Positions 2,633 to 24,510 of a DNA stretch of 26,398 nucleotides are shown one piece after another. A program made the translations under genes and the position numbers. Location of the stretch: the IMG/VR virus record IMGVR_UViG_2534681993_000012; one strand, given 5' to 3'. This DNA comes from a virus. Lineage: Duplodnaviria > Heunggongvirae > Uroviricota > Caudoviricetes. Under the pieces are notes generated by a model. That model worked only from the letters and a program-made list of their open reading frames with translations, was not told the origin of the DNA and did not search any database. How positions within the stretch are numbered: position 1 is the first letter of the stretch; every line of letters starts with the position of its first letter.

Positions 2633-2635
2633 TTT

Positions 2636-3460: not shown

Positions 3461-3485
3461 ACTAATTACCTTAAAGTTTTTCATG

Positions 3486-3514
3486 ATTATACCTTTAAGG
3501 TAATTTGTGGTCAT
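3486..3514 (-). promoter_or_regulatory. sigma70-like promoter with embedded operator dyad for the membrane-protein gene
   Basis: Minus strand: -35 ATGACC (3514-3509), 17-bp spacer, -10 TATAAT (3491-3486). The dyad aTACCT-TTA-AGGTAA (3489-3503) lies in the spacer and overlaps the -10. Confidence 0.5.
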
Positions 3515-3526
3515 CAGGCAAAAAAA

Positions 3527-3545
3527 TACCCGGCGAACCGGGCGA
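3527..3545 (-). terminator. intrinsic terminator (minus strand only)
   Basis: Minus strand reads CCCGG-TTCG-CCGGG then TATTTTTTT. No U-run on the + strand, so late-operon read-through is not blocked. Confidence 0.5.
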
Positions 3546-3620
3546 ACTGGAAGCAATGAGTTATGCCTTCCGTGGCTGTACTGGTTTACAGCATGAAGTC
3601 ATCGCAATGGCGTCCTGCTG

Positions 3621-3663
3621 TAAAAAGGGCGGTGATAGTCCTTCAAGGGAAACTATCACCGCC
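3621..3663 (-). terminator. intrinsic terminator downstream of the tRNA (minus strand only)
   Basis: 12-bp stem GGCGGTGATAGT/ACTATCACCGCC with 12-nt loop, followed on the minus strand by CTTTTTA. Confidence 0.55.
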
Positions 3664-3706
3664 AAGCACCTGGAACTTCTGGCATCACGGTCCTTAGGCG
3701 TGATTC

Positions 3707-3783
3707 TGGCGTGGCATGCAGGATTCGAACCTGCGACCAACCGCTTAGAAGGCGGTTGCTCTGTCCAACTGAGCTAATGCCAC
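3707..3783 (-). tRNA. tRNA-Arg (anticodon UCU, decodes AGA); phage-borne
   Basis: Minus strand folds as a 77-nt cloverleaf: acceptor GTGGCAT/ATGCCAC, D-arm GCTC...GAGC, anticodon stem ACCGC/GCGGT with loop CTTCTAA (U33-UCU-A37), T-arm GCAGG-TTCGAAT-CCTGC, discriminator G and encoded CCA. Resembles but differs from host argU as I recall it. Confidence 0.85.
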
Positions 3784-4106
3784 AACACTGAGAGCACTTA
3801 GCCTGTTAAGTGCGCCACACTTTGTCGCGGCTCCATAAATGCTCTCATCGTTGTACCCTCGTCTCTTCCGAGGCGTCACACCGAATCGCCGGGATGGTGA
3901 ATCCCCGTGCGCGGAATAAAACCGCTCGACTTGCACATTCCGGCTACCTGGTTCGTTTGCCCGAGCAAGGGAGGGTGCCCCTTAAACGTATCCAGACCGC
4001 TATCGGCGCATGTGCCATACGCCGTACTGCTCAAAATAAAAGCTCACTCCACCTGTTCAATTTAACGATAAGCCAGTCAGGTTAATAACCGGAATGAACA
4101 CTTTAC

Positions 4107-4121
4107 TTACCTGAAAGGTAA
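4107..4121. promoter_or_regulatory. operator-like dyad TTACCT-GAA-AGGTAA (perfect arms)
   Basis: Perfect 6-3-6 inverted repeat. Lies about 320 bp 5' of the tRNA on the minus strand and about 90 bp upstream of the + strand 68-aa gene; the target promoter is ambiguous. Confidence 0.55.
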
Positions 4122-4211
4122 TAATTCGTGCGTTAAATGTCAACTATCTACGATAAATAAATCATATGTGGTTAAATTGGTAATAATTTAATTGCGTACG
4201 GAGTCATTGAT

Positions 4212-4418
4212 ATGTGCATGGGTAGCTCACCGTCAGTGCCTGCAACACCAGAAGTTCAGGCAGCACCACAGGAGCAGGATGCCGCCGTTGTTGATGCCCG
4301 CGACGAAGAAACTCGTCGCCGTCGCGCTGCTGCTGGTCGTAGTTCTACGCTGCTTACCGGTTCTCAGGGCGACACATCAACCGCTAATACCAGCGGTAAA
4401 ACGCTGCTTGGTCAGTAA
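4212..4418 (+). CDS. small hypothetical protein (68 aa) preceding portal
   Basis: ATG with GGAG Shine-Dalgarno; the initiation context GGAGTCATTGA(T)ATG is nearly identical to that of the portal gene (GGAGTCATTGA(A)ATG at 4421-4435). Confidence 0.5.
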   Translation: MCMGSSPSVPATPEVQAAPQEQDAAVVDARDEETRRRRAAAGRSSTLLTGSQGDTSTANTSGKTLLGQ

Positions 4419-4432
4419 CCGGAGTCATTGAA

Positions 4433-6112
4433 ATGGCGGAAACAACTAAAGAGCGATTGAACAAACAGTTCGCACAACTTGAAAGCGAGCGTCAGTCGTT
4501 CGAGCCGCACTGGCGCGAGTTGAGTGATTACATCAACCCGCGTGGTTCCCGCTTTCTGACTTCTGAGGTCAACCGTAACGATCGACGCAATACACGCATT
4601 ATTGATTCGACCGGGACTATGGCGGCGCGCACTCTCGCCAGCGGCATGATGTCAGGCATCACAAGCCCCGCGCGTCCGTGGTTTCGCCTGGCTACGCCAG
4701 ATCCTGAAATGATGGATTATGGCCCTGTTAAGTTGTGGCTTGAGGCAGTGCAGAACCGCATGAACGATATGTTCAATAAGTCGAATCTCTATCAGTCGCT
4801 GCCGCAGTTATACGGAAGCCTCGGCACATACAGCACCGGTGCAATGGCGGTGATGGAGGATGACGAGGACATCATTCGTACAATGCCATTCCCGATAGGA
4901 AGTTACTACCTGGCTAACTCACCTCGTGGCAGTGTGGACACCTGTTTTCGCAAGTTCTCTATGACTGTTCGTCAGCTTGTTCAGGAGTTCGGGCTAAATA
5001 ACGTCAGCGAATCCGTAAAAAGCATGTGGGAAAGCGGCACCTACGAGAAGTGGATTGAAGTGATGCATTCGGTTTACCCGAACATTGACCGCGATACATC
5101 GAAGCTGGATAGCAAGAACAAGCCATTCAAATCGGTTTATTACGAGGTTGGTGGCGATAACGACAGGTTGTTGCGTGAGTCCGGATTCGATGAGTTTCCA
5201 ATTATGGCTCCGCGCTGGGAAGTTAACGGCGAAGATGTTTATGGATCATCATGCCCGGGTATGCTGGCGCTTGGACCTGTTAAGGCATTGCAGCTTCTCC
5301 AGAAGCGCAAGTCGCAGTTGATTGATAAAGCCACCAATCCGCCGATGGTTGCTCCGACTTCCCTCAAGAATCAGCGCGCCTCCCTTCTTCCTGGCGACAT
5401 CACGTATATCGATCAGATTACTGGTCAGGATGGCTTCAGGCCTGCTTATCTGGTTAACCCCAGTACAGCAGATTTGGTGGCAGACATTCAGGACACTCGT
5501 CAAATCATTAACAGCGCCTACTTTGTCGATCTGTTCATGATGTTGCAGAACATCAATACCCGCTCGATGCCTGTTGAAGCGGTGATCGAAATGAAAGAAG
5601 AAAAACTTCTGATGTTGGGGCCGGTTCTGGAGCGTCTGAACGACGAATGTCTTAATCCTCTCATTGACCGCGCTTTCTCGATGATGGTGCGTAAAAACAT
5701 GCTGCCGCCACCGCCTGACGCGATGGAAGGCATGCCCCTGAAGGTCGAATACATTTCCGTCATGGCTCAGGCGCAGAAGTCTATCGGCCTGTCCAGTCTG
5801 GCGTCCACGGTTAACTTCATTGGTCAACTTGCGCAAGCGAAACCAGAAGCTCTCGACAAACTCAACGTTGATCAGGCGATCGATGCATTCGCTGATATGT
5901 CCGGAGTGTCTCCAACCGTCATTGTTCCGCAGGAACAGGTTGAGCAGGCTCGCCAGCAACGGGCACAGCAGCAACAGCAGCAACAAATGATGGCGATGGG
6001 GATGGCGGCGGCACAGGGTGCCAAGACGCTAAGCGAAGCTAAAACTTCGGATCCGAGTGTGTTGTCAGCTATGGCGAATGCAGTTAGTGGTCAGGGTGGG
6101 CAATCACAATGA
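4433..6112 (+). CDS. portal (head-to-tail connector) protein
   Basis: 559 aa; position after terminase; C-terminal Gln/Ala/Met-rich tail (QQQQQQQMMAMGMAAAQGAK) of the kind I recall in podovirus connectors; strong Shine-Dalgarno. Confidence 0.8.
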   Translation: MAETTKERLNKQFAQLESERQSFEPHWRELSDYINPRGSRFLTSEVNRNDRRNTRIIDSTGTMAARTLASGMMSGITSPARPWFRLATPDPEMMDYGPVKLWLEAVQNRMNDMFNKSNLYQSLPQLYGSLGTYSTGAMAVMEDDEDIIRTMPFPIGSYYLANSPRGSVDTCFRKFSMTVRQLVQEFGLNNVSESVKSMWESGTYEKWIEVMHSVYPNIDRDTSKLDSKNKPFKSVYYEVGGDNDRLLRESGFDEFPIMAPRWEVNGEDVYGSSCPGMLALGPVKALQLLQKRKSQLIDKATNPPMVAPTSLKNQRASLLPGDITYIDQITGQDGFRPAYLVNPSTADLVADIQDTRQIINSAYFVDLFMMLQNINTRSMPVEAVIEMKEEKLLMLGPVLERLNDECLNPLIDRAFSMMVRKNMLPPPPDAMEGMPLKVEYISVMAQAQKSIGLSSLASTVNFIGQLAQAKPEALDKLNVDQAIDAFADMSGVSPTVIVPQEQVEQARQQRAQQQQQQQMMAMGMAAAQGAKTLSEAKTSDPSVLSAMANAVSGQGGQSQ

Positions 6113-6405
6113 CAGATTACGAAGACGATCAACTGAAAGAAGAAAACGACCGTAAGCAACGTGACATGGCACAGCGTGAAATTGATGACATTCGCTTTGT
6201 CATGAGCAGTGAACAGGGGCGTCGAGTTGTCTGGTCGGTGCTGGAGAAAGGCCGTGTGTTTTCCGCTATCTCACCGATGGACGCTATGGCAATGGCATTT
6301 AATGAGGGGCAACGCAATCTGGCGCTGGAACTGTTTCAGCGCGTTATGGCGCATTGCCCTGAACAGTATTTGAAGATGGCCAAAGAGGCCAGTGAACAGG
6401 AGTGA
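6109..6405 (+). CDS. small acidic head-assembly-associated protein (98 aa)
   Basis: ATGA overlap with the portal stop; no alternative-frame conflict. Confidence 0.55.
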   Translation: MTDYEDDQLKEENDRKQRDMAQREIDDIRFVMSSEQGRRVVWSVLEKGRVFSAISPMDAMAMAFNEGQRNLALELFQRVMAHCPEQYLKMAKEASEQE

Positions 6406-6407
6406 TC

Positions 6408-7103
6408 ATGAATTTATTTGAGTGTTTGCTGTATAGCCGTCTTTGCAATGAGCAACCAGTCGATGGTGGAGCAGCTCCGGCTGCGTCAGAACCGTCAGCG
6501 CCTGCAGGTGATAACCCTGCTCCAGTTGGTGCTCCATCACAACAGGAAGGTGATAAGCCACAACCTGTTGCTGATGGCGATAAACCTGCTGATGACAAAA
6601 AGCCTGAAAACGATAAGCAGGATGAAAAAAAGGACGGCGATAAACCAGATGGTGCGCCTGAGAAGTACGAGTTTCAGGCTGCCGAAGGCGTAGAGCTGGA
6701 TACAGAAGCATTGAAGGAATTCGAGCCGGTGGCGCGAGAACTAAACCTGACCAACGAGCAAGCGCAAAAGCTGGTTGATGCTTATCCGAAGATTCTGGCA
6801 GGTGTTCAGCAGCGCCAGGCAGAAGCCTGGCAGAAAACAACCGAGCAGTGGGCTGCGGATGTAAAAGCCGACAAAGAAATCGGTGGCGACAAGTTGATTT
6901 CTAACCTTAGCGCCGCACAGCGTGCGCTTGACCAGTTCGGGACACCTGAACTCAAAGAATATCTGAACACCACCGGGCTGGGTAATCACCCTGATCTGGT
7001 CAAAACGTTCGTGAAAATCGGAAAGGCGATGTCTGAAGATGGCATGGTCACCGGTGGTAATGAAGGCCAGCGTAGTGCGGCCGAAGTGCTCTATGGCAAA
7101 TAA
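6408..7103 (+). CDS. scaffolding protein (putative) with Pro/Ala/Asp/Lys-rich disordered N-terminal region
   Basis: ORF track 6402..7103 (GTG); ATG 6408 has better spacing to GGAG. Sits between portal and capsid; low-complexity region with GDKP repeats; helical C-terminal part. Confidence 0.6.
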   Translation: MNLFECLLYSRLCNEQPVDGGAAPAASEPSAPAGDNPAPVGAPSQQEGDKPQPVADGDKPADDKKPENDKQDEKKDGDKPDGAPEKYEFQAAEGVELDTEALKEFEPVARELNLTNEQAQKLVDAYPKILAGVQQRQAEAWQKTTEQWAADVKADKEIGGDKLISNLSAAQRALDQFGTPELKEYLNTTGLGNHPDLVKTFVKIGKAMSEDGMVTGGNEGQRSAAEVLYGK

Positions 7104-7117
7104 GAGAGGAAATGACA

Positions 7118-8104
7118 ATGGCTGTTAAAGGCTTAACTGCGCTAACGCTGGCTGACTGGGGTAAGCGCGTCGATCCAAACGGGAAAGTCGATAAGATTAT
7201 CGAGCTTCTCAATCAAACTAACCCAATTCTTCAGGATATGCCTTTTGTTGAAGGAAACCTTCCTACCGGACACCGAACCACCATTCGTTCTGGTTTACCT
7301 TCCGCTACCTGGCGTTTGCTGAACTATGGCGTACAGCCAAGCAAATCAACCACAGTGCAGGTCACCGATTCCATTGGCATGCTGGAAACCTATGCTGAAG
7401 TCGATAAGTCTCTGGCTGATCTGAACGGTAATACTGCCGAATTCCGTCTGTCTGAAGACCGAGCATTTATTGAAGCGATGAATCAGGCGATGGCGCAGAC
7501 ACTGTTTTACGGTGATTCCAGCGTTAACCCTCAGCAGTTTATGGGACTGTCCTCCCGATATTCCAGCCTGTCTGCGGGTAATGCTCAGAACATCATTGAT
7601 GCTGGTGGCACGGGTACAGATAACACTTCAATCTGGTTAGTGGTGTGGGGCGAAAACACCGTGCATGGCATCTTCCCGAAAGGACAGAAGGCTGGCATTC
7701 AGATGGAAGATAAAGGCCAGGTGACACTGGAAGATGCTAATGGCGGCAAGTACGAAGGTTATCGTACCCATTATAAGTGGGACAACGGGCTGACATTACG
7801 TGACTGGCGCTATGTAGTTCGTATCGCAAACATTGATGTCAGTAATCTTGACGCTCCTTCTACTGCCGCGAATATCGCAAAACTGATGATTCGTGCCCTT
7901 CATCGAATCCCAAATCGTGGGATGGGACGTCCTGTTTTCTACATGAACAGAACCATTAACGAAGTGCTTGACCTGCAATCTCTGGAGAAGAGTTCTCTGG
8001 CGATCAGCGTGAAAGAGACAGAAGGCGAATGGTGGACAGCACTTCGTGGTGTGCCGATTCGCGAAACTGACGCACTTCTGGAAACAGAAGCCCGCGTGGT
8101 GTAA
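7118..8104 (+). CDS. major capsid protein
   Basis: ORF track 7112..8104; ATG 7118 has better spacing to AGAGAGGAA. About 36 kDa protein after the scaffold, followed by a stable hairpin; typical capsid position and size. Confidence 0.8.
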   Translation: MAVKGLTALTLADWGKRVDPNGKVDKIIELLNQTNPILQDMPFVEGNLPTGHRTTIRSGLPSATWRLLNYGVQPSKSTTVQVTDSIGMLETYAEVDKSLADLNGNTAEFRLSEDRAFIEAMNQAMAQTLFYGDSSVNPQQFMGLSSRYSSLSAGNAQNIIDAGGTGTDNTSIWLVVWGENTVHGIFPKGQKAGIQMEDKGQVTLEDANGGKYEGYRTHYKWDNGLTLRDWRYVVRIANIDVSNLDAPSTAANIAKLMIRALHRIPNRGMGRPVFYMNRTINEVLDLQSLEKSSLAISVKETEGEWWTALRGVPIRETDALLETEARVV

Positions 8105-8120
8105 CGCCTGTTATTAACCT

Positions 8121-8140
8121 GTGGGCCGCAACAGGCCCAC
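8121..8140 (+). other. GC-rich hairpin after the capsid gene (no U-tract; possible mRNA stabiliser or processing site)
   Basis: GTGGGCC-GCAACA-GGCCCAC, 17 nt after the capsid stop. Confidence 0.3.
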
Positions 8141-8155
8141 TAATGGAGAAAGAAG

Positions 8156-8593
8156 ATGATCACCGACAAACTGTTGATGTTCTCCGAAGCACAGGCGGTA
8201 ACTGATACCGCGGCTTCTACTGACGTAATCGATCTCGGTCCAATTGACGGAAACCGTCGCGATATCGGTGTGGGTTACCCGCTTGAGTTTTGGGTGCTGG
8301 TTAACGAAGCCGCCACGGCAAGTGGTGAGGCAACTGTAAACATCCAGTTGCAGACGAGTGAGAATAACAGCTCATGGTCCACTATTTATGATAGTGGCGC
8401 ACTGGCAAAGGCTACCCTGACAGCAGGTAAACGAGTTGTTTCTGCAAAGGTGCCTGCCGGTGTTCAGCGATATCTGCGTGTTAACTACTCCGTCGCAACT
8501 GGCCCACTAACGGCCGGCAAATTCACTGCGGGTATCAGTCTGGATGTTGATGCCAATACGCCGTACCCGATCCGCTCAAAAGTAACTGGTTAA
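8156..8593 (+). CDS. virion protein (145 aa; Thr/Ser/Ala-rich, possible head decoration or fibre protein)
   Basis: ATG with GGAGA Shine-Dalgarno; composition typical of beta-rich structural proteins. Confidence 0.6.
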   Translation: MITDKLLMFSEAQAVTDTAASTDVIDLGPIDGNRRDIGVGYPLEFWVLVNEAATASGEATVNIQLQTSENNSSWSTIYDSGALAKATLTAGKRVVSAKVPAGVQRYLRVNYSVATGPLTAGKFTAGISLDVDANTPYPIRSKVTG

Positions 8594-8603
8594 GGTGATA
8601 TCG

Positions 8604-8939
8604 ATGTCAGGTGAGAAACCAAGATACCGCGTTCTGCGCCTCTCTCATATCCATAACACACTGTGGCCGGAGGGAGCAGAAATCGAATACGAAGGTGAGC
8701 CTGGTAGCGCACTGGAACCTGTTAACGATGCAGCCAGACAGGCAAAAGCAAAAGTTGCAGGAAAGGTGTCAATGGCAGCAACCAGCACCAAAATCATCAA
8801 CGATGCGTCAGATGATGGTGAACTGGATAAGCTCCGTGAAGAGTACGAATTGCTCTTTAACGAGAAGCCACACCATAACGCCAAAGCAGAAACGCTCCGC
8901 GAGAAGATCGCAGATAAGCGTAAAGAACTGGGCGTGTAA
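8604..8939 (+). CDS. small acidic head protein (about 12 kDa)
   Basis: ORF track 8595..8939 (GTG); ATG 8604 follows AAGGTGA. The overlapping ORF 8611..9021 in another frame looks non-protein-like. Confidence 0.6.
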   Translation: MSGEKPRYRVLRLSHIHNTLWPEGAEIEYEGEPGSALEPVNDAARQAKAKVAGKVSMAATSTKIINDASDDGELDKLREEYELLFNEKPHHNAKAETLREKIADKRKELGV

Positions 8940-8955
8940 GCCTCGCGAATCAGAC

Positions 8956-8977
8956 AAGGGGCTTCGGCCCCTTTATT
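8956..8977 (+). terminator. intrinsic terminator-like hairpin after the head-gene block (probably partial terminator)
   Basis: AAGGGGC-TTCG-GCCCCTT followed by TATT; weak U-tract. Confidence 0.45.
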
Positions 8978-8989
8978 GCAGGAGTGTAT

Positions 8990-9313
8990 ATGGAACTCGT
9001 AAACCTCAAAACCGGCACTGACAGCTACCAGGATGAGAGCGGAGAAACCAGAACTCGCGATGAATACCCGTGGGGGCTGTGCATCACTCTTAATAACGAC
9101 ACATTGAATAAGCTGAAGGCGCAACCTCAGGGCGTCGGAACAGAAGTGATGATAACTGCAAAGGCTGTTATTCGAGGCCTGTCTGCCAGAGAAACTGACG
9201 ATGGTGTTAATCGCAGCGCCGAGCTGCAGATCACTGATATGGCGATCGCTCCTGTTTCCGGGGATGTAGAAAAATCAGCGGCTGAAACTCTGTACGGCAA
9301 TGGGGGTGAGTAA
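8990..9313 (+). CDS. virion protein (107 aa)
   Basis: ORF track 8984..9313; ATG 8990 follows GGAG. TAATG overlap with the next gene. Confidence 0.6.
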   Translation: MELVNLKTGTDSYQDESGETRTRDEYPWGLCITLNNDTLNKLKAQPQGVGTEVMITAKAVIRGLSARETDDGVNRSAELQITDMAIAPVSGDVEKSAAETLYGNGGE

Positions 9314-9918
9314 TGGCCTCTGTAGTAGAGATCTGCAATCGTGCGCTGTCCAATATTGGCAATAGCCGCAGCATTAACAGCCTGAAGGAAGCCAGCAAGG
9401 AAGCGGGGGAATGTTCGCTGCACTTTGAGGCCTGCCGTGATGCTGTGCTTTCTGATTTTGACTGGAACTTTGCTACCAAACGCGTGGCGCTTGCAGATAC
9501 GAACAATCCACCTCCTGACTGGGAATATGCGTACCAGTACCCGTCCGATTGTCTGCGCATTACTGAAATTATGCTTCCTGGTGTACGCAATCCAACAGCA
9601 GCAATGCGCGTCCAGTACGAAGTGGGTGCAGACACCAACGGAACAGGAAAGTTGATCTACACAGACCAGCCGCAGGCATGGCTCAAGTATGTCTCTCGCG
9701 TTTCAGATGTAAACATGTTTGATGCCATTTTTATGGAGGCGCTGGCCTGGCGTCTTGCGGCAGCCATTAACATGGCGCTGACTGGGAATGCAGACCTCGG
9801 TACGTTTGCCCTCAATATGTACAATCGCGTGATTCTTAGTGCTGGCTCGCATAGTCAGAATGAATCACAGGAACCACAGCCACCGGTTGACGAGTTTACC
9901 ATTGCGAGGTTGTCCTGA
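9313..9918 (+). CDS. head-tail adaptor or tail-tube-like virion protein (201 aa)
   Basis: Coupled start (TAATG); size and position match an adaptor or gatekeeper protein. Confidence 0.65.
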   Translation: MASVVEICNRALSNIGNSRSINSLKEASKEAGECSLHFEACRDAVLSDFDWNFATKRVALADTNNPPPDWEYAYQYPSDCLRITEIMLPGVRNPTAAMRVQYEVGADTNGTGKLIYTDQPQAWLKYVSRVSDVNMFDAIFMEALAWRLAAAINMALTGNADLGTFALNMYNRVILSAGSHSQNESQEPQPPVDEFTIARLS

Positions 9919-16175: not shown

Positions 16176-19100
16176 TGCCGATATATGAACAGGATCCTAA
16201 AGAGTTGCTTGGCGAGGATATTCAGCAAATAGCAGCACCTGATGACAGTAATTTCTATATGGAAACACCTTCTTTGCTTTCTGCTGTGAACCCATTTACC
16301 AGTGATCAACGCGTTCAAAGGTCTAGACAAGCAGCATTTCGTATAGATAACACGCTGGGTAGCTTTATTGCCAGTGCTCCTTTCAGTCAGTTTGACAGGG
16401 TTGAAGGATATAACCCATTTGATAACGATGCAGCAGATATTAAAGGCTATGAAGATTTTGCAGATTCGTTTATCAACTCCGGTTCGCATGAAGAAACAAT
16501 GGCAATTAAACATCGAATCGATAAGCAAAGAACAGATAGAGAATATCTATCTGAAATGGGTGGTGCTGGTACTATTTCAAGCTTAGCAATGGGAATGATA
16601 GACCCGGTTAATGTGGCTGCAATGTTCATCCCTGTAGGGGCGGTAGCGCGTGGAGGAAGTATTGCTGAGACGGCAGGGCGTTTTGCCCTGGCGAATGCTG
16701 CTGGTGGGGGAGTATCAGAAGCCGCATTACAGGCCACTCAGGAAGCTCGCTCACCGATGGAGAGCGTATCGAACGTTGTTGTTGATGCTCTCGTTGGTGG
16801 GATCCTTGGTGCTGGTGCACAGCTACTTGCTGGACCTAGCGCGCGCGAGGCAGTGGTTAACTCAGTAGGTAATCATTTGCGAGGTATGGATTCTCCTCAA
16901 AGCATTGGTGCAGCTCAGGTTTTCAATACCACACTCGATCAGGAACAGCTCGCTGGACTTGGACTTGCTAACAAAACGTTGAGTGTCACTCCTGCTGGCC
17001 GCTTGGCTCAATCACCATCTCTTGTCTCCCGTCAGATTAACCAGCAGCTTGCCGAAAATAACTATTTCTTCGCCAAAAATGATGAGGGGTTGGCTACGTT
17101 TACGGCAGTCGAGACTAAGATTAAGCAATACGACGCCATGCTTTATAAGCAGATGGAAGCCACTCGTGATGCTTACCAGCAGTACAGCAAATCTGTTAGC
17201 GCCCGCGGCGTGAAGAGGATGAACTTTATTGATTTCAATGAAGCTGTTGGCATGGCTATGCGCCGTGGTGATCAGAGTGATATTCCTGAGGTTTCACAAG
17301 CAGCTGCCAGAATCCGCCCCATTTTCGAGACCACAAAAGCCCGTATGCAGGAACTGGGGATCCTTCCTGAGGATATCGATGTCGTGACGGCGAAAAGTTA
17401 TCTTCCCCGCATTTATAAGTTCGATAAGATACTTTCCGACCGCACTGAATTCAGAGGGCGAATTGCCAACTGGATACAAGGGATTAGTGCCAAAGGTGCT
17501 GACAAAGCAGGTCAGCGAATTGAAAGGATAAATTCATTGCTAAAAACTGCAGAGGAATCGGCACCGCGCGCTGATGCTCTCGCTAGTGAAATCGCTGAAG
17601 CGGAGAAATGGTCTGGTAAAAAAATTCTACTCATGGAAGAACTGGATAAACGAAATAAGCTTATATCTCAGGAGACTGACACACAGGCGCGTCTTACAAG
17701 AATAGAAAAAGAGTTGGCCGAGACTTCATCAGAAAAACTTCAGGCAAGAATGATGAAAGAAAGCTCTGACCTTAAAACACGCCTTGATGATATAGCGCAG
17801 GCAAAGAGTGAGCTTCCTGTCTATCAGCGCCATATGGAGTTGCTGGATAATCCACGGAAATATCGTTCTGAGCTTCGCCGACTGCAAAAACGGGCAAATT
17901 CAACCACAAGGCTGAATGCAAGCCGCGAACGAGCACTGAAGCAGATGGAGCCTCTATCCCGAGAGGAAGCAGAGGACGCTGCTGACGAGATCGTGAATAA
18001 AATAATAGGCGCACCTTCCGGGCTTGTACCAGCCGATATTATCCCAGAGAGACTCGTTGGTCGGGCTGGTTTCACTAAAAGCAGAACGCTGCTTATTCCT
18101 GATGAGCGTATAGAAGATTTTCTTGAATCAGATGTTAACTACATCATGGAAAGTTATCTCCGGCAGGTGGCACCAGAAATTGAGCTGACTGCGCAGTTTG
18201 GCCGTAAAGATATGGGGGAGCAAATCCGTCAGGTTAGTGAGGAATATACCCGGCTAATAAAAGAGGCTAAAACACCTAAACGACGTGCAGTTCTTGAGAA
18301 GCAACGGGAGGCTGATATTAGGGATATTACGGCTATGCGTGATCGACTGCTTGGTACTTACGGTGCACCTCAAGATCCACGCAGTTTCTTTGTTCGTGCC
18401 GGGCGAGTTGCTAGGAATATTAACTTCCTCCGTTTGCTTGGTGGAATGACTGTCTCCGCTGCAACTGATCTGATGCGACCGATGATGCAGCATGGCCTGA
18501 GAAAATCTCTCGGACCAATGGTAAGCATGCTTAAAAATATGGACTCAGTGAAAATTGCAACCAGGGATTTGCGAGAAATGGCCGTTGGGCTTGATTATGT
18601 CCTGTCTACGCGTACAAAGGCTATAGCGGATCTTACTGACCCCTATAGCCGGAGAAGCGCCGCTGAGCGAGGTCTGAACTGGATGACGCAGAAATTCGGT
18701 AACTGGACGCTGATGAATCAGTGGAACAGCGCACTTAAATCATGGTCCGGGATGATAGTGCAGTCGAGGATACTTGACGCGGCTCGCCAAGTTTCTGCTG
18801 GTGGCACGCTCTCCAAAAGTGAAATGCGGAAGATGGCACAGGTCGGCATCAATGAAGATGTTCTGCGCCGAATCGGGGAGCAATTCGGGAAGCACGGAGA
18901 GGATATGGACGGGCTGTTAACCGGGCATAGTCATCTGTGGGATGACCGTTTCGCTAGAGAGATTTTCCAGTCTGCAGTGCTGAAAGATGTAGACTCAGTG
19001 ATTGTAACGCCTGGCGTAGGTGATACACCGCTGTTTTTTAGTAAAGAAGGCTGGAAGATGATCACGCAGTTCAAAACGTTTATCTTCGCACAGCATAACA

Positions 19101-19564
19101 GGGTGCTAGTATCTGGTATCCAGCAGGGCGATGCTGCATTCTATCTTGGTGCGCTTGGCACGATTGCGCTTGGCTCAATGGTCTATATGATGAAACAGAA
19201 GTTAAGCGGTCGCGATATCGACTACAGCTGGAATAACCTTGTGAAAGAGGGGATCGACCGGGGCGGAATGCTTGGCTGGCTCTCTGAGCCGCTGAATACC
19301 GTTGAGAACATAAGCGGCGGTAGGTTTGGTCTTGGCGCGATGTTTGGTGCGCCTCCGGTATCAAGGTTTCAGAGTCGTAATGCTATTGGTGCTTTACTTG
19401 GTCCTACCTTTGATCTTGGCGGTGATGCCGCGACGGTTGCGAATGGTGTACTTAACGGAGAATTTGACAGCCAGCAAACCCACGCGGTCCGTAAAATGCT
19501 ACCTTTTCAGAACCTGTGGGCGATATCACCGTTACTAAATAAAGTTGAAGAGCAGATGAAATAG
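16175..19564 (+). CDS. largest internal core or ejection protein (1129 aa; coiled-coil-rich)
   Basis: TAATG coupling; long charged heptad regions (KLQARMMKESSDLKTRLDDIAQAK...); last gene of the coupled operon, stop TAG 19562-19564. Confidence 0.8.
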   Translation: MPIYEQDPKELLGEDIQQIAAPDDSNFYMETPSLLSAVNPFTSDQRVQRSRQAAFRIDNTLGSFIASAPFSQFDRVEGYNPFDNDAADIKGYEDFADSFINSGSHEETMAIKHRIDKQRTDREYLSEMGGAGTISSLAMGMIDPVNVAAMFIPVGAVARGGSIAETAGRFALANAAGGGVSEAALQATQEARSPMESVSNVVVDALVGGILGAGAQLLAGPSAREAVVNSVGNHLRGMDSPQSIGAAQVFNTTLDQEQLAGLGLANKTLSVTPAGRLAQSPSLVSRQINQQLAENNYFFAKNDEGLATFTAVETKIKQYDAMLYKQMEATRDAYQQYSKSVSARGVKRMNFIDFNEAVGMAMRRGDQSDIPEVSQAAARIRPIFETTKARMQELGILPEDIDVVTAKSYLPRIYKFDKILSDRTEFRGRIANWIQGISAKGADKAGQRIERINSLLKTAEESAPRADALASEIAEAEKWSGKKILLMEELDKRNKLISQETDTQARLTRIEKELAETSSEKLQARMMKESSDLKTRLDDIAQAKSELPVYQRHMELLDNPRKYRSELRRLQKRANSTTRLNASRERALKQMEPLSREEAEDAADEIVNKIIGAPSGLVPADIIPERLVGRAGFTKSRTLLIPDERIEDFLESDVNYIMESYLRQVAPEIELTAQFGRKDMGEQIRQVSEEYTRLIKEAKTPKRRAVLEKQREADIRDITAMRDRLLGTYGAPQDPRSFFVRAGRVARNINFLRLLGGMTVSAATDLMRPMMQHGLRKSLGPMVSMLKNMDSVKIATRDLREMAVGLDYVLSTRTKAIADLTDPYSRRSAAERGLNWMTQKFGNWTLMNQWNSALKSWSGMIVQSRILDAARQVSAGGTLSKSEMRKMAQVGINEDVLRRIGEQFGKHGEDMDGLLTGHSHLWDDRFAREIFQSAVLKDVDSVIVTPGVGDTPLFFSKEGWKMITQFKTFIFAQHNRVLVSGIQQGDAAFYLGALGTIALGSMVYMMKQKLSGRDIDYSWNNLVKEGIDRGGMLGWLSEPLNTVENISGGRFGLGAMFGAPPVSRFQSRNAIGALLGPTFDLGGDAATVANGVLNGEFDSQQTHAVRKMLPFQNLWAISPLLNKVEEQMK

Positions 19565-20005
19565 CTATTCACAATTAGTGATGGCGTATGTATCAAATAT
19601 ATTGCCATCACTAAATACATACCTATACTCAATCTCTCCGCCAAGGTGAATAAATGCTTTCATTTGCCTGTTGGAGCAAATGCTCGATTTTGAATAATTT
19701 CGCATTACACTCTTTAATTTATTTTCTAAGGTTACATCACCATTATAAACTTTTGATAAATAGCTGTTGTTGTAATTAAGATGCGCTACAACTAAAAGTT
19801 TGTTTAGTATTGCATTTATTGAAACAATAGACATATTATCATTCAATTTTATGGGAAGTGACTTTCCTGCTTCTGATGCAATTTTGTTTGCATGTGCACA
19901 CATATCCTCATTTATTAAATTCTTAAAACATATGTCGTTTGCAAACGAAAAAATTGGTAGGATAAACAAAACGGTAGCTGTAATAGCGTGCATCGGCTTA
20001 ATCAT
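19565..20005 (-). CDS. secreted or periplasmic moron protein (146 aa) with Sec signal peptide; function unknown
   Basis: N-terminus MIKPMHAITATVLFILPIFSFA then NDI (signal peptide); four Cys; very AT-rich. Its stop (CTA, 19565-19567) directly abuts the stop of the 1129-aa gene. Confidence 0.55.
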   Translation of the reverse strand: MIKPMHAITATVLFILPIFSFANDICFKNLINEDMCAHANKIASEAGKSLPIKLNDNMSIVSINAILNKLLVVAHLNYNNSYLSKVYNGDVTLENKLKSVMRNYSKSSICSNRQMKAFIHLGGEIEYRYVFSDGNIFDTYAITNCE

Positions 20006-20205
20006 TAGGTGACCTTTATGTTCAAGAAGATGATCAACAGATTAATCGGTGGTAAGGAGGTTAGCAATAAAATTCAACCTCTTATCTTTAAGGATAACTT
20101 TTCAGCTTTTGAGTATGCGTGTAAGTATCTTGACACAAGCCTTTCAGCCAATAAACCAATGCCAGCCATCATCATACCTGGTCCAAGTGGGGAACAGCCA
20201 GTTTT

Positions 20206-20210
20206 GCTAG
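20206..20210. repeat. IS2 target-site duplication (GCTAG), left copy
   Basis: The same 5-mer directly flanks both IS2 ends. Confidence 0.8.
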
Positions 20211-20221
20211 TGGATTTGCCC

Positions 20222-21127
20222 CTATATTTCCAGACACCTGTTATCACTTAACCCATTACTGGCTTGCTGCCGTAGATATTCCCGTGGCGAGCGATAACCC
20301 AGTGCACTATGCGGATGCCATTCGTTATAATGCTCGAACGCCTCTGCAAGGTTCTTTGCTGCCGTTAACCCGTCTGGTTTGGGCATGACACTGATGTAGT
20401 CACGCTTTATCGTTTTCACGAAGCTCTCTGCTATGCCGTTACTCTCCGGACTCCGCACCGCCGTGCTCTTCGGTTCAAGCCCCAACATCCGGGCAAACTG
20501 CCGTGTTTCATTAGCCCGGTAGCATGAACCATTATCCGTCAGCCACTCTACTGGAGACGCCGGAAGCTCGTTGCCGAAGCGGCGTTCCACCGCTCCCAGC
20601 ATGACGTCCTGTACTGTTTCACTGTTGAAGCCGCCCGTAGTGACCGCCCAGTGCAGTGCCTCACGGTCACAGCAGTCCAGCGCGAACGTGACTCGCAGTT
20701 TTTCTCCGTTATCACAGCGGAACTCGAACCCGTCAGAGCACCATCGCTGATTACTTTCTTTCACAGCCACTCTGCCTGTATGTGCCCGTTTCGATGGCGG
20801 TACAGCAGGTTTTCGCTCAAGCAACAGCGCATTCTGGCGCATGATCCGGTAAACACGTTTGGCATTGATCGCAGGCATACCATCAAGTTCTGCCTGTCTG
20901 CGAAGCAGCGCCCATACCCGACGATAACCATACGTGGGCAGCTCTCCGATAACATGGTGTATACGGAGAAGCACATCCGTATCATCAGTGTGACGACTGC
21001 GGCGGCCATCCATCCAGTCATCGGTTCGTCTGAGAATGACGTGCAACTGCGCACGCGACACCCGGAGACAACGGCTGACTAAGCTTACTCCCCATCCCCG
21101 GGCAATAAGGGCGCGTGCGCTATCCAC
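20222..21127 (-). CDS. insD: IS2 transposase OrfB (InsD)
   Basis: 301-aa translation [23 protein letters not shown]... recognised as IS2 InsD. Overlaps insC in the -1 frame with slippery CAAAAAAG at 21127-21134 (programmed frameshift typical of the IS3 family). Confidence 0.9.
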
Positions 21128-21450
21128 TTTTTTGCCCGTCCATATTCAACGGCTTCTTTGAGGAGTTCATTTTCCATCGTTTTCTTGCCGAGCAGGCGCT
21201 GGAGTTCTTTAATCTGCTTCATGGCGGCAGCAAGTTCAGAGGCAGGAACAACCTGTTCTCCGGCGGCGACAGCAGTAAGACTTCCTTCCTGGTATTGCTT
21301 ACGCCAGAGAAATAACTGGCTGGCTGCTACACCATGTTGCCGGGCAACGAGGGAGACCGTCATCCCTGGTTCAAAGCTCTGCTGAACAATTGCGATCTTT
21401 TCCTGTGTGGTACGCCGTCTGCGTTTCTCCGGTCCTAAGACATCAATCAT
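21085..21450 (-). CDS. insC: IS2 OrfA (InsC), HTH protein
   Basis: [25 protein letters not shown]...; ATG 21450 follows GGAGA. The ORF-track extension to 21495 lacks a ribosome-binding site. Confidence 0.85.
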
Positions 21451-21541
21451 CTGCTCTCCAATGACTAGTCTAAAAACTAGTATTAAGACTATCACTTAAA
21501 TAAGTGATACTGGTTGTCTGGAGATTCAGGGGGCCAGTCTA

Positions 21542-21546
21542 GCTAG
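21542..21546. repeat. IS2 target-site duplication (GCTAG), right copy
   Basis: See left copy. Confidence 0.8.
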
Positions 21547-21800
21547 ATTCTGGAAGACAAAGGGCAATGCTGAAGGTGTGCTCAGCTGATGGTGGATTTT
21601 TTGTTATTGCCGATTCATCTTACAGCAAAGGACCAAAGCTGAGGATTGGTGATCTTGTTGCTTGGTTGCCTGTGAGTTATGCCGAAGAATTAACGGATAA
21701 AATAGAAGATCCTCGCTCCGCTATGGTTGGCTTTATATTGGGAACCATTCATCCTGAACTAACATCTACTGGCTGGAAGGGTAAAGAAAGATTTCGCAAG

Positions 21801-21816
21801 TAGCGTGACATGTCAC
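21801..21816. repeat. 16-bp motif TAGCGTGACATGTCAC (copy 2 of 2)
   Basis: Exact repeat of 444-459; here its first 3 nt are the stop codon of the IS2-disrupted gene and it is followed at once by a terminator. Confidence 0.7.
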
Positions 21817-21841
21817 AGGCCGCTTTCGCGGCCTTGTTTTT
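21817..21841 (+). terminator. intrinsic terminator
   Basis: AGGCCGC-TTTC-GCGGCCT followed by TGTTTTT. Confidence 0.6.
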
Positions 21842-22001
21842 AACGAATGCCACCGCCGCCCGGGCGGGAATCCGCAGAACGCCCACCGCAGCGGGAGCCG
21901 TCAGCGGCAGTATCGCTGTCGTGCTGACAACGACCGGCAAAGGCCTGAGTTGAAGCTACCAGAGACAACAAAACGAACAGTGCAGCAAATGCTTTTTTCA
22001 T
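21840..22001 (-). CDS. small secreted peptide (53-aa precursor; about 31-aa mature, Gly/Arg/Asp/Ser-rich with 2 Cys)
   Basis: ORF track 21840..22073; the internal start MKKAFAALFVLLSLVASTQAFA gives a canonical Sec signal peptide with AFA cleavage motif. GC-rich, unlike its neighbours. Confidence 0.45.
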   Translation of the reverse strand: MKKAFAALFVLLSLVASTQAFAGRCQHDSDTAADGSRCGGRSADSRPGGGGIR

Positions 22002-22014
22002 TGTGACATTTCCA

Positions 22015-22042
22015 TCTATAAGCCACCTCAATGTGGCGTCAA
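22015..22042 (-). promoter_or_regulatory. candidate sigma70 promoter of the small-peptide gene
   Basis: Minus strand: -35 TTGACG (22042-22037), 16-bp spacer, -10 TATAGA (22020-22015). Confidence 0.35.
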
Positions 22043-22082
22043 TGAGTGTAGCACTGACTTTTGTTTCGTCCATAAAAAACTA

Positions 22083-22595
22083 CTATGCAGGCTTTTTGGA
22101 TTTGTACGAATAATCCCACGGATAAACATTTCTACTAAGTGGGGCTGTATTCGTTCGTTCATGAAATAATTTTGTGAAATTCAATACGGAATCCATCCAA
22201 ACTTTTGCGTTAGCTTTGGTGTGTGCGGGCGGGTCCCAATAAGCTAGTAAGGCTGCATCTCTTATTTCATTGACTGCATATATGAGATATGCGTTACTGG
22301 TTGGTTTTGGCCTGTAATTTCCTTGTTCATCAATCAATCCATATGACCACTCATCCCAACACTGTTCAGTACATGAGTATGAATATGATGCATATTCACC
22401 AATATTGACATGAACCTTTCTGAGATGGAAGCCTAATACTTCGTCTGGTCTTTCAAAAAGAGTATCTTTTCCCAGATCAGGATGATGACCATGACGCCAG
22501 TGTTGTTTAAAAGCATCTTTTAGCGAAATCAGAAAGTCATCAGTTTTAAACTCACCAGTAGGTATAACCTTCCCGCTATACTCACTCAAAAACAT
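22083..22595 (-). CDS. uncharacterised protein (170 aa), distal gene of a two-gene operon; His/Cys-rich segments (HWRHGHHP, CTEQCWDEW)
   Basis: ATG 22595 follows GAGGAA; the start overlaps the last 14 nt of the upstream gene (translational coupling). No family recognised by eye. Confidence 0.6.
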   Translation of the reverse strand: MFLSEYSGKVIPTGEFKTDDFLISLKDAFKQHWRHGHHPDLGKDTLFERPDEVLGFHLRKVHVNIGEYASYSYSCTEQCWDEWSYGLIDEQGNYRPKPTSNAYLIYAVNEIRDAALLAYWDPPAHTKANAKVWMDSVLNFTKLFHERTNTAPLSRNVYPWDYSYKSKKPA

Positions 22596-22908
22596 CGAAT
22601 TCCTCTTCCTTCATATGCGTTTCTAATGAGTTAAGCTGGCGGAAAGATATCTCTTTTGATTCTGCAGATGAGAGCTTTTTTATCCGCTTTATATTCTTTG
22701 TGATAGGAATAGACATTGTATGCACATCAGCGGATGCTCTTGGCTTTGTGCTGATAAAAATATGGCGCAATGCCGCATTTTCACTATTGAACGAGCCAAT
22801 AGCTGATTTACGTGCTACAACCTTACCAGTAAAAATACGACTCTTGCTACGCTTTGCATGAGTTCCGCTTCTTACCGGACCTCTCATCACGAATCCAAGT
22901 TTTGTCAT
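22582..22908 (-). CDS. uncharacterised basic protein (108 aa), proximal gene of the two-gene operon
   Basis: ATG 22908 follows GGAGA (7-nt spacer); Lys/Arg-rich N-terminal half, acidic C-terminus; operator dyad 43-57 bp upstream. Confidence 0.6.
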   Translation of the reverse strand: MTKLGFVMRGPVRSGTHAKRSKSRIFTGKVVARKSAIGSFNSENAALRHIFISTKPRASADVHTMSIPITKNIKRIKKLSSAESKEISFRQLNSLETHMKEEEFDVFE

Positions 22909-22950
22909 CTTTAATCTCCGGTAAGTTACAGGTATAAAATAAAAACAGGT

Positions 22951-22965
22951 TTACCTTTAAGGTAA
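22951..22965. promoter_or_regulatory. operator-like dyad TTACCT-TTA-AGGTAA (perfect arms) upstream of the 108/170 operon
   Basis: Perfect 6-3-6 inverted repeat in the 5' region of the minus-strand operon. Confidence 0.6.
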
Positions 22966-23031
22966 TATTACGCGAATCTACATCACATCGCCAATGATTA
23001 TTTTAAAGGCACATCCCTGTGCCGCCGCCCG

Positions 23032-23742
23032 TCAGAAGAACCCAGCCTTGTCGTTGATGTACTCCGCGTGGGTCTGGATATCACGCAGGCATTTGCTCAC
23101 ACCGACGATGTAGCAGAACATGGTGGTCAGCTCCGCCGCCGCGCCCGATACGTCGTGCCCGTCTTCCTGTAACTGGTTCAGCAGATTCATCAGCAGTGAG
23201 TGCTCCGTCAGGCCGAGAACACCAGACGGCGAATGAATCAGGCTACGGTAGCCGGGCTTCAGTGGGGCACTGTAGGTTTTGTTCTCTATCTTCATTGCCT
23301 GCATTACTGCTGACGCCGTGGCGTTGGCTACCTGGTCGGCAACCATCTTTATGCGTTCTTCCTGCGGTAGCGAGTTTTTAATGTAACTTCCGGTGCGGCG
23401 GATCTGAGGAAGAACCTCACCTGTAACCCATTTACGAAAGCGGTAGGGGATAGTGCCTGGTGTCACCGCATCGCGGCAGCGGAGGATCAGTGTGTAGAGG
23501 CCTGACTCGGAGATGATGTTGATCTCTTTTACTCGGCTGTCAAAAATTGCACGATGTTCATGCCCTATGTTGAACATAGACCTTTCATCATCATCCAGTT
23601 TTTCAAGTGCTTGGGTGACGTTTTGGATACGCAGCGCACTACAAACGTCTTGGGCTACAAACCATGGTTGGCCATCGATAATGATGGAACGGATAGGGTT
23701 AACAGATTCAAATTTGAAGATGGCAGTTTGAGCATTAGCCAT
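23032..23742 (-). CDS. phage antirepressor, BRO-N family (N-terminal Bro-N DNA-binding domain plus C-terminal Ant-like domain)
   Basis: ORF track 23032..23757 (GTG); ATG 23742 follows GGAG. N-terminus FKFESVNPIRSIIIDGQPWFVAQDVCSALRIQN is a typical Bro-N signature; the C-terminal 80 aa are homologous to the ORF at 24058-24315. Confidence 0.85.
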   Translation of the reverse strand: MANAQTAIFKFESVNPIRSIIIDGQPWFVAQDVCSALRIQNVTQALEKLDDDERSMFNIGHEHRAIFDSRVKEINIISESGLYTLILRCRDAVTPGTIPYRFRKWVTGEVLPQIRRTGSYIKNSLPQEERIKMVADQVANATASAVMQAMKIENKTYSAPLKPGYRSLIHSPSGVLGLTEHSLLMNLLNQLQEDGHDVSGAAAELTTMFCYIVGVSKCLRDIQTHAEYINDKAGFF

Positions 23743-23770
23743 GGTGGTTATCTCCACTTAGTGATTTTAA

Positions 23771-23801
23771 TCACCACCGCAACGCCAATTACTGGTGGTG
23801 A
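23771..23801 (-). promoter_or_regulatory. 5'-leader inverted repeat of the antirepressor gene (TCACCACC / GGTGGTGA, 15-nt loop) with a third ACCACC copy abutting the start codon
   Basis: Arms at 23771-23778 and 23794-23801; a GGTGGT copy at 23743-23748 lies directly beside the start codon. Alternative pairings could expose or occlude the ribosome-binding site. Confidence 0.35.
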
Positions 23802-23896
23802 ACTGGACAAGGTTGGCGTACCGGCCTAAGTGGTACCGGCGTCCTTTCGGACCCCTGCCCAGCCCACCATAATTCGGATATGGCTGTGCTTAACGC

Positions 23897-23921
23897 ATAA
23901 AAAAACCACGTCTGGCGTGGT
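23897..23921 (-). terminator. intrinsic terminator (minus strand) between the short paralogue and the antirepressor
   Basis: Minus strand reads ACCACG-CCAGA-CGTGGT then TTTTTTTA. Confidence 0.5.
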
Positions 23922-23954
23922 ATGCGCCACTTAGTAACTCGGGACGCCAATCCC

Positions 23955-23976
23955 GGCACTGGATTTTGCCAGTGCC
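23955..23976. other. stable GC-rich hairpin (8-bp stem GGCACTGG/CCAGTGCC, 6-nt loop), no U-tract
   Basis: Perfect inverted repeat within the structured intergenic region. Confidence 0.35.
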
Positions 23977-23990
23977 CGATTACTATGGCA

Positions 23991-24044
23991 CAAGAGGAGT
24001 GCGATGTAAATTTACCGCAAAGGTAAATATAAGCACTCCTCTTG
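23991..24044. promoter_or_regulatory. nested palindrome: 12-bp arms CAAGAGGAGTGC/GCACTCCTCTTG enclosing a 30-nt loop that carries the dyad TTACCg-CAA-AGGTAA (24012-24026)
   Basis: Perfect 12-bp inverted repeat, 14 nt downstream of the short paralogue's stop; the inner dyad matches the motif family with one arm mismatch. Confidence 0.5.
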
Positions 24045-24057
24045 GTAATTTCAAATC

Positions 24058-24315
24058 TTATCTGGTTTGTTTTCGTAATTGTTCGGCACAATAGTCGAGA
24101 TGTGTTTGCAGATCCCGCATAGACATCTGTGAGCTGGTGACGTAGTTAATCAGTGCAGTCAGTTCGGCAAGTGGGCCATCGACATTAAATCCATCCTTAT
24201 CGAGATCCCGGAGTAATTTCATCAAGTGCGATCCCTCCACCAGTGACCTGACGCCTCCCGGCGTGTGAATCCTTTCGGTAAATCCGTCTTCCAGTGGATA
24301 GTGATACTGCTGCAT
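24058..24315 (-). CDS. short antirepressor paralogue (85 aa) corresponding to the C-terminal domain of the adjacent BRO-N antirepressor; LexA-controlled
   Basis: ORF track 24058..24333 (TTG); ATG 24315 follows GGAGA (8-nt spacer). HTPGGVRSLVEGSHLMKLLRDLDKDGFNVDGPLAELTALINYVTSSQMSMRDLQTHLDY aligns with the antirepressor segment HSPSGVLGLTEHSLLMNLLNQLQEDGHDVSGAAAELTTMFCYIVGVSKCLRDIQTHAEY. Confidence 0.7.
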   Translation of the reverse strand: MQQYHYPLEDGFTERIHTPGGVRSLVEGSHLMKLLRDLDKDGFNVDGPLAELTALINYVTSSQMSMRDLQTHLDYCAEQLRKQTR

Positions 24316-24334
24316 CTTATCTTCTCCATGCAAT

Positions 24335-24354
24335 AACTGTATAAATATACAGTA
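24335..24354. promoter_or_regulatory. LexA (SOS) box
   Basis: AACTGTATAAATATACAGTA: CTGT-N8-ACAG with AT-rich spacer, about 18/20 to the consensus TACTGTATATATATACAGTA; sits 10 nt upstream of the ribosome-binding site of the short paralogue. Confidence 0.75.
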
Positions 24355-24391
24355 TCAAATAATTTGTTTGCTATCCAGCACGTTTTGCGAA

Positions 24392-24406
24392 TCACCTGAA
24401 AGGTAA
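24392..24406. promoter_or_regulatory. operator-like dyad TcACCT-GAA-AGGTAA upstream of the LexA-controlled promoter
   Basis: 6-3-6 inverted repeat, one arm mismatch; lies in the divergent intergenic region between the short paralogue and the tailspike. Confidence 0.55.
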
Positions 24407-24510
24407 TATCTGTTCGTATTTATGGGTTATATATCCATATGTGGTTTTTCAGGTAATAGAATAACCGGATATGCGGCGCAACGGGTGCTGCGACTATCTG
24501 GAGATTTAAC

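Follow-up and report, generated by a model that had tools for sequence, protein, structure and literature searches.

Dispersed TTACC-N5-GGTAA dyads as probable operators of the prophage's own repressor in an epsilon15/phiV10-like Escherichia coli prophage

The 26,398-nucleotide viral record IMGVR_UViG_2534681993_000012, analysed here over its whole length (the window), carries five copies of a 15-bp dyad, TTACCT-N3-AGGTAA, and raises the question of which regulator these copies serve. The original prediction drew on their likeness to sites of the E. coli antitoxin MqsA, and took them as marking a possible regulon of accessory genes controlled by host MqsA or by a similar prophage regulator encoded outside the window. 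By megablast, the window belongs to an epsilon15/phiV10-like temperate podovirus of the genus Uetakevirus, present as an E. coli prophage, with Escherichia phages EC.W1-9, TL-2011b and phiV10 as the nearest records. Based on the distribution of the dyad across this genus, we propose that the dyads are very probably operators of the prophage's own master repressor, Rep, and not MqsA sites. Rep would be a CI-like protein of about 194 amino acids (aa) with two helix-turn-helix (HTH) regions, of the epsilon15/SPC32H family, encoded in the immunity region to the left of the window.

Consensus and distribution of the dyad

The five copies were correctly located and read in the original prediction. 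TTACCT-N3-AGGTAA is perfect at 4107-4121 (TTACCTGAAAGGTAA) and 22951-22965 (TTACCTTTAAGGTAA) and has one mismatch at 3489-3503 (ATACCTTTAAGGTAA), 24012-24026 (TTACCGCAAAGGTAA) and 24392-24406 (TCACCTGAAAGGTAA). Their number is also beyond chance, as had been claimed, with five strict copies against a mean of 0.01 in 100 dinucleotide-preserving shuffles. The true consensus is broader, namely (A)TTACC-N5-GGTAA(T). The seven sites annotated in epsilon15 read out as ATTACC-N5-GGTAAT, and among 45 distinct family sites it is the five arm bases that define the set; next to the arms T reaches no more than 50% of half-sites, whereas at the centre 88 of 90 half-sites have A or T, and A predominates in the outer flank. 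TTACC-N5-GGTAA occurs four times exactly in the window (0.03 expected) and seven times with at most one mismatch (0.5 expected). The broader consensus adds a sixth copy at 538-552 (TTACCACAACGGTAA) and a degenerate seventh at 556-570 (TTACCACGGTGGTTA), both directly before the start of terS.

The same dyad recurs throughout the genus. Exact copies number 8 in phiV10, 11 in epsilon15, 10 in TL-2011b, 10 in SPC32H and 9 in Tyrion, where chance would give about 0.02-0.03 per scanned genome, and further copies were found in Kp4865-1, BUCT554 and BUCT711 (Klebsiella/Enterobacter members) and in six E. coli prophages. A scan of 111.6 kb of host chromosome returned no exact copy. The exact dyads are all intergenic in epsilon15 (11/11) and SPC32H (10/10), for an intergenic fraction of about 6.7% (P ~1e-13). 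Between orthologous sites the arms are invariant and the spacers and flanks vary.

These positions contradict the view that the dyads are confined to the accessory islands and absent from the virion operon, since the dyads at 538, 4107 and 24392 fall outside that pattern. The apparent restriction arose because the pattern first searched for required T at position 6 and A at position 10. The 4107 and 24392 dyads are genus-wide core sites, kept even in phages that have no accessory island there, and in relatives a dyad precedes almost all transcription units. Nor is a regulon confined to accessory genes borne out, as the same operator precedes early, late, lysis and integrase units across the genus.

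Rep and its competitors

The layout of the dyads points to an immunity repressor. In the epsilon15 RefSeq record (NC_004775), seven features labelled 'protein_bind: repressor, lysogeny' match dyads, and three of them are orthologous to sites in the window: epsilon15 12-27 to the 538 dyad before terS, 2931-2947 to the 4107 dyad before gp3, and 19895-19911 to the 24392 dyad, which in epsilon15 lies between gp19 (ant) and the tailspike gene. The predicted repressor-binding sites of epsilon15 are reportedly to be credited to Kropinski et al. in 2007. For the dyads at 3489, 22951 and 24012 epsilon15 offers no orthologue, as it does not carry the cargo in which they are found.

A Rep-family repressor gene flanked by dyad clusters was present in each of the 15 relatives examined, and each complete genome has two or three dyads on either side of this gene in an OL/OR-like layout, often in pairs 62 bp apart; SPC32H has three on each side of rep among its ten exact dyads. 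The gene encodes a 194-aa HTH repressor and is found about 6-7.5 kb to the left of terS in relatives, including five prophages with an identical terS protein in which the repressor gene, with dyads on both sides, lies 6-6.5 kb upstream of terS. The original prediction is thus supported as to the operator-like nature of the dyads and the place of the regulator, encoded by the prophage outside the window, and is not supported as to its MqsA identity. Elsewhere in the relatives, single dyads precede terS, the gp3/portal operon, the tailspike gene, the lysis cassette and int, and a pair of dyads 62 bp apart precedes the gene that comes after the replication genes. Such pairs, whose centres are 62 bp (63 bp in a few cases) or about six helical turns apart, occur at two places per genome, for example at 32555/32617 and 35907/35969 in the relative L003, at 31953/32015 and 35070/35132 in phiV10 (L002) and at 1618/1680 and 4718/4780 in the near-identical E. 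coli prophage L007. None occurs within the window. A tetramer that binds cooperatively or with looping would fit this spacing.

Homologies to a characterised switch support this assignment. The repressor of L007 (1753-2337) matches SPC32H Rep (PDB 5D50_A) over its full length (E = 4e-42), and a segment in the N-terminal HTH region, NLVNRW, is invariant in all eight Uetakevirus Reps aligned. Within the window, ant (24058-24315, minus strand) encodes an 85-aa antirepressor that matches SPC32H Ant (PDB 5D50 chain E, E = 2e-46). Its true start is the ATG at 24315 and not the TTG at 24333. A perfect LexA box of the form CTGT-N8-ACAG (CTGTATAAATATACAG, 24337-24352) lies over the ant promoter and is conserved across the genus (6 genomes aligned). 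The likeness to SPC32H thus comprises an Ant homologue and a LexA box in the window and a Rep homologue in its relatives. Kim and Ryu in 2013 and Kim et al. in 2016 are said to have described the Rep/Ant/LexA lysis-lysogeny switch of SPC32H (PDB 5D50, 5D4Z). Two papers that cite this work describe SPC32H Rep as binding palindromic DNA sites as a tetramer, which tetrameric Ant dismantles (PMC9638917, PMC9986798).

Based on these parallels, we hypothesise that each (A)TTACC-N5-GGTAA(T) dyad is bound by a pair of Rep N-terminal HTH domains; since Rep is published as a tetramer, a single Rep assembly might span two dyads. A lysogen would have Rep at the early promoters flanking rep, at the sites before terS, gp3/portal, the tailspike gene, the lysis cassette and int, and also on three accessory promoters, those of a 282-aa membrane protein, of an operon for 108-aa and 170-aa proteins (the 108/170 operon) and of an isrK/C4/Bro-N module. 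On induction, DNA damage would inactivate LexA and ant would be derepressed through the LexA box at its promoter. Ant would then bind the C-terminal domain of Rep and take apart the DNA-binding tetramer, and all operators, those of the accessory units included, would be vacated together.

The remaining window sites lie at terS and at late units. Before terS, the 538 and 556 dyads, 18 bp apart, come after the terminator of the preceding gene and before the terS ATG (570/573); the 556 dyad overlaps the terS ribosome-binding site and ends at that probable start. RefSeq-style annotation, as in L007 and the relative L008, starts terS at TTG 492, and the start equivalent to ATG 570/573 is used in epsilon15, SPC32H, Tyrion and EC.W1-9. 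We consider ATG 570/573 the more plausible start, because TTG 492 would put the terminator hairpin and both dyads into coding sequence. The 4107 dyad, ahead of the gp3/portal virion operon, forms a conserved block between otherwise diverged flanks, and in epsilon15, SPC32H and Tyrion homology to the window starts exactly at this dyad. The 24392 dyad, between the LexA-controlled ant and the tailspike gene, is kept in all six genomes aligned.

At the gp3, tailspike and lysis units the dyad is followed, 44-64 bp further downstream, by a second conserved element, CATATGTGGTT-N5-GGTAAT. In the window it is found as CATATGTGGTTAAATTGGTAAT (4163-4184, plus strand), 56 bp downstream of the 4107 dyad and ahead of gp3, where it is exact in all six genomes aligned, and as CATATGTGGTTTTTCAGGTAAT (24436-24457, plus strand), 44 bp downstream of the 24392 dyad and inside TCCATA-17-TAGAAT, which matches a promoter weakly and precedes the tailspike gene. 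The copy before the lysis cassette is degenerate, further copies occur at L003 24751 and L007 36477, and 100 kb of host DNA contains none. An element related to it is present at terS (GGTGGTTA). The second element resembles a weak promoter that has no good -35 and is a candidate late promoter or activator site. A strict sigma-70 scan found promoters only at the 3489 and 24012 dyads, and a lenient one gave only weak candidates at 4107, at 24392 and at terS.

Several points weigh against Rep control as outlined above. The window does not reach the rep region of this prophage, and the epsilon15 repressor sites are record annotations, presumably predictions. The comparison offers no covariation contrast between repressor and dyad, as the eight aligned repressors share NLVNRW and all genomes share the arms. 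A Cro-like protein may share the dyad sites. The late-unit dyads, moreover, would be centred roughly at -70 to -80, and simple occlusion therefore does not explain repression there; at these units looping by the tetramer, a roadblock, interference with a late activator or even activation are possible.

In one alternative, a phage protein other than Rep is the main ligand of the dispersed dyads, either a small Cro-like protein divergent from rep or the gp49-like regulator encoded at 104-451, and the sites could act as late activator sites. The product of 104-451, just upstream of terS, matches phrog_536 ('transcriptional regulator'), the 4107 and 24392 dyads are about 60-80 bp upstream of the late-promoter-like element, a spacing typical of activator sites, and Cro and CI are known to share operators in lambdoid phages. 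However, the same dyad makes OL/OR-like clusters around rep and overlaps -10 and +1 at accessory promoters, which is repressor geometry, and CATATGTGGTT-N5-GGTAAT would be the more natural target of a late activator. The gp49-like protein, in addition, has no Pfam or PDB match supporting sequence-specific binding to a dyad. We therefore regard this alternative as improbable, albeit the strongest of those considered here.

Binding of host MqsA to the dyads, with repression of the accessory genes, is much harder to sustain and in our view very unlikely. The MqsA motif is AACCT-N3-AGGTT, and MqsA reportedly binds a palindrome in the rpoS promoter, ACCT TGC AGGT (PMC4894380). ACCT-N3-AGGT is present in four of the five window copies, which so match the core of the rpoS palindrome. 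More broadly, the dyads resemble the E. coli MqsA palindromes (that of mqsRA and related ones at rpoS, csgD and cspD; PMC4894380) in their 15-bp scale, 3-nt spacer and ACC/GGT core, and in having an HTH protein as the repressor that binds them, which for Rep is a prediction. The two kinds of site nevertheless differ in the outer base: AACCT-N3-AGGTT is found in none of the five window copies and in none of the 45 distinct family sites, every site having T where MqsA sites carry the outer A. Only 12 of the 45 family sites contain ACCT-N3-AGGT, and the T and A of ACCT/AGGT are unconserved. This core does not appear to be selected, because 12/45 is the fraction predicted by 50% T per half-site.

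The motif is retained in phages of Salmonella, Enterobacter and Klebsiella, following the phage and not the host, and it stands on both sides of the phage repressor gene. Rep has neither similarity to MqsA (BLASTP E = 1.2, with the MqsA sequence confirmed against PDB 3GN5/3O9X) nor its zinc-ribbon architecture. No MqsA-like regulator had been recognised inside the window, and we also found none among the window open reading frames scanned. Weak cross-binding of MqsA to the four copies that carry the ACCT/AGGT core is conceivable, though nothing speaks for it. With high probability the motif belongs to the prophage immunity repressor, which corrects its tempting misattribution to MqsA.

Dyads at three accessory promoters

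At all three accessory promoters the dyad lies in the promoter spacer or over the -10/+1 region, and repression by promoter occlusion would therefore be expected at 3489, 22951 and 24012. The 3489 dyad is in the spacer and over the -10 of a strong minus-strand sigma-70-like promoter, ATGACC-17-TATAAT (3486-3514, 10/12 match), which spans it, and the promoter geometry reported in the original prediction was found as described. The promoter serves a 282-aa cargo gene (phrog_4780; 2636-3484, minus strand) whose product has two N-terminal hydrophobic segments followed by a coiled coil. Three dyads had been placed 40-80 bp upstream of gene starts. This distance holds for the 22951 dyad (43 bp) and the 24392 dyad (~77 bp from ATG 24315) but not for the 282-aa membrane protein, whose RefSeq-type ATG at 3484 is only 5 bp from the 3489 dyad.

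In EC.W1-9, an identical terminator-promoter-dyad arrangement stands ahead of a different cargo gene of 201 aa. Five other cargo variants in this slot after terL have no dyad, and only the 282-aa and 201-aa variants carry it at their promoter. The slot, between terL and a tRNA-Arg gene (window 2627-3520; 12157-12600 in L014-L018), is hypervariable and holds, among close relatives, at least seven different minus-strand cargo genes of 61-282 aa. The tRNA-Arg (anticodon TCT; 3707-3783, minus strand) lies between the 3489 and 4107 dyads, with minus-strand terminator-like hairpins at 3663-3628 and 3543-3528 flanking it.

The 22951 dyad is at the promoter of the 108/170 operon (22083-22908, minus strand), whose products are a protein of 108 aa (phrog_5933) and one of 170 aa that resembles toxins of the YafO family. 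The dyad covers the predicted +1 on the minus strand and shares one base, the last, with a -10-like TAATAT (TTGGCG-18-TAATAT). TL-2011b and EC.W1-9 share the operon; their upstream DNA cannot be aligned with that of the window, and the dyad has the same arms with different spacers (TTACCTCAAGGGTAA and TTACCCGATTGGTAA).

This position invites the reading that the 22951 dyad is an autoregulatory operator of a toxin-antitoxin-like operon, bound by the 108-aa product, given that the second gene is annotated as a YafO-family toxin and that type II antitoxins, as is generally known, commonly bind palindromes at their own promoters. We find it scarcely credible, since the motif stands at six other places in the window and genus-wide in phages that have no 108/170 operon, and the 108-aa protein has no detectable DNA-binding domain. 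Moreover, the relatives with the operon keep the TTACC/GGTAA arms and vary spacer and flanks, as do other Rep-type sites.

The third of these dyads, at 24012, is at the promoter of a module made up of an isrK-like RNA, a C4-like RNA and a Bro-N antirepressor gene. It abuts the -10 of one predicted minus-strand promoter, TTGAAA-17-TATATT (24054-24026), and the -35 of another, TTTACA-17-CATAGT (24010-23982). The +1 of the latter, at about 23975, coincides with the start of the Rfam isrK match. This isrK-like small RNA (sRNA; 23899-23975, minus strand) scores 67 bits, above the gathering score, and has its own terminator at 23921-23905. Next comes a C4-antisense-like RNA (23791-23874, minus strand; 66 bits, gathering score 45), both matches being located between ant and the Bro-N antirepressor gene (236 aa; 23032-23742, minus strand), which lies downstream of the two RNAs.

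In its C-terminal part (residues 153-234) the Bro-N protein is a member of the family that includes the short Ant (phrog_450). The prophage may thus have two antirepressors directed at Rep, one controlled by LexA and the other by the dyad and the sRNAs. Since the Bro-N C-terminus falls in the Ant family, we hypothesise that this second, Rep-repressed antirepressor could reinforce induction.

Just past the ant stop codon, an outer stem of 12 bp, AAGAGGAGTGC...GCACTCCTCTT (window 23975-24060, minus strand; -28.6 kcal/mol, z = -5.4), encloses the 24012 dyad. Least probable of all is that the dyads act as RNA hairpins in termination, processing or stability: they are inverted repeats and the 24012 copy is in this strong stem, but isolated dyads are weak (-2 to -4.2 kcal/mol), no better than shuffled sequence and devoid of T-tracts, several lie upstream of predicted transcription starts, and TL-2011b, EC.W1-9 and Tyrion lack the 24012 outer stem and retain the dyad. 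In phiV10, the place of the 24012 dyad (L002 ~20480-20530) is taken by a perfect palindrome whose arms measure about 18 bp and whose 5-nt spacer is inverted (GCAAA vs TTTGC), which suggests a template-switch or inversion event at the dyad.

Known systems and the acquisition of cargo

A close precedent for Rep operators of this kind is epsilon15, with the same ATTACC-N5-GGTAAT sites at orthologous positions. Its record has seven sites and none at accessory genes, whereas this prophage has three more on the promoters of acquired cargo. As the operator was already predicted for epsilon15, the advance is incremental; what is mildly new is that three cargo promoters carry the dyad. SPC32H, for all its similarity in the switch itself, is without the Bro-N, isrK/C4 and YafO-like modules and their operators.

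A further likeness is offered by phage P1, whose C1 repressor has many dispersed operators, which are asymmetric 17-mers, and whose immI region combines a C1-controlled promoter, the c4 antisense RNA and ant. As is generally known of P1, one repressor is served there by single operators scattered before many units, and the same arrangement is seen here. The likeness extends to immI, in that a C4-family RNA lies upstream of an antirepressor gene and behind a promoter with a repressor-type dyad, here a predicted operator. However, C1 is unrelated to Rep, and the present sites are symmetric dyads in a podovirus of lambdoid organisation. The isrK-orf45-anrP locus of Gifsy-1, in which the isrK promoter drives the downstream antirepressor-like gene by read-through (PMC4825925), likewise pairs an isrK-family sRNA, which has a terminator to itself, with an antirepressor-like gene downstream. 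It differs from the module described here, in which a C4-like RNA lies in between and a Rep-type dyad abuts the predicted isrK promoter.

Ends of homology to relatives also cluster at the dyads. When the window was compared with ten relatives, 22 of 140 ends of BLAST high-scoring segment pairs fell within 40 bp of a dyad (2.7 expected). We do not claim a function from this clustering, because the comparisons share ancestry and operators at cassette borders would produce it trivially.

A more speculative reading, possible but rather doubtful at present, is that the Rep operator is a portable plug-in and that acquired cargo cassettes join the LexA-Ant-Rep switch through a promoter-operator of their own; in this prophage the cassettes would be the membrane/coiled-coil protein, the YafO-like toxin operon and the antirepressor with its Ant domain behind the isrK/C4 RNAs. 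If this were true, the morons would be induction-phase genes and not lysogenic-conversion genes, and the Rep-repressed Bro-N-Ant protein would provide positive feedback that locks induction. The dispersed dyads might further serve as microhomology linkers for the exchange of cassettes.

The sites described here provide a testable map of the predicted Rep regulon in an E. coli epsilon15/phiV10-like prophage. They predict that the lysogen keeps the toxin-like operon, the membrane protein and the second antirepressor module switched off and that these units come on together with the lytic genes, and they bear on how temperate phages build acquired cargo into their genetic switch.

The overall organisation of the window follows the gene order gp49-like regulator gene, terS/terL, virion operon and tailspike gene, broken by two variable regions at 2.6-4.1 kb (after terL) and 19.5-24.4 kb. 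The latter contains an IS3-family insertion, the YafO-like two-gene operon, the Bro-N antirepressor and a short open reading frame. Complete E. coli genomes hold close relatives with up to ~97-99.9% identity per segment, which differ in the position of the insertion sequence and in the cargo of the left island. The insertion is an IS2-like element of the IS3 family, 1.33 kb long (~20210-21541), with orfA (21085-21495) and orfB (20222-21127) on the minus strand. It apparently splits a plus-strand open reading frame that is intact in L007 (28787-29236, 450 nt), and in L007 a copy of the IS3-family element sits elsewhere, within the tailspike gene.

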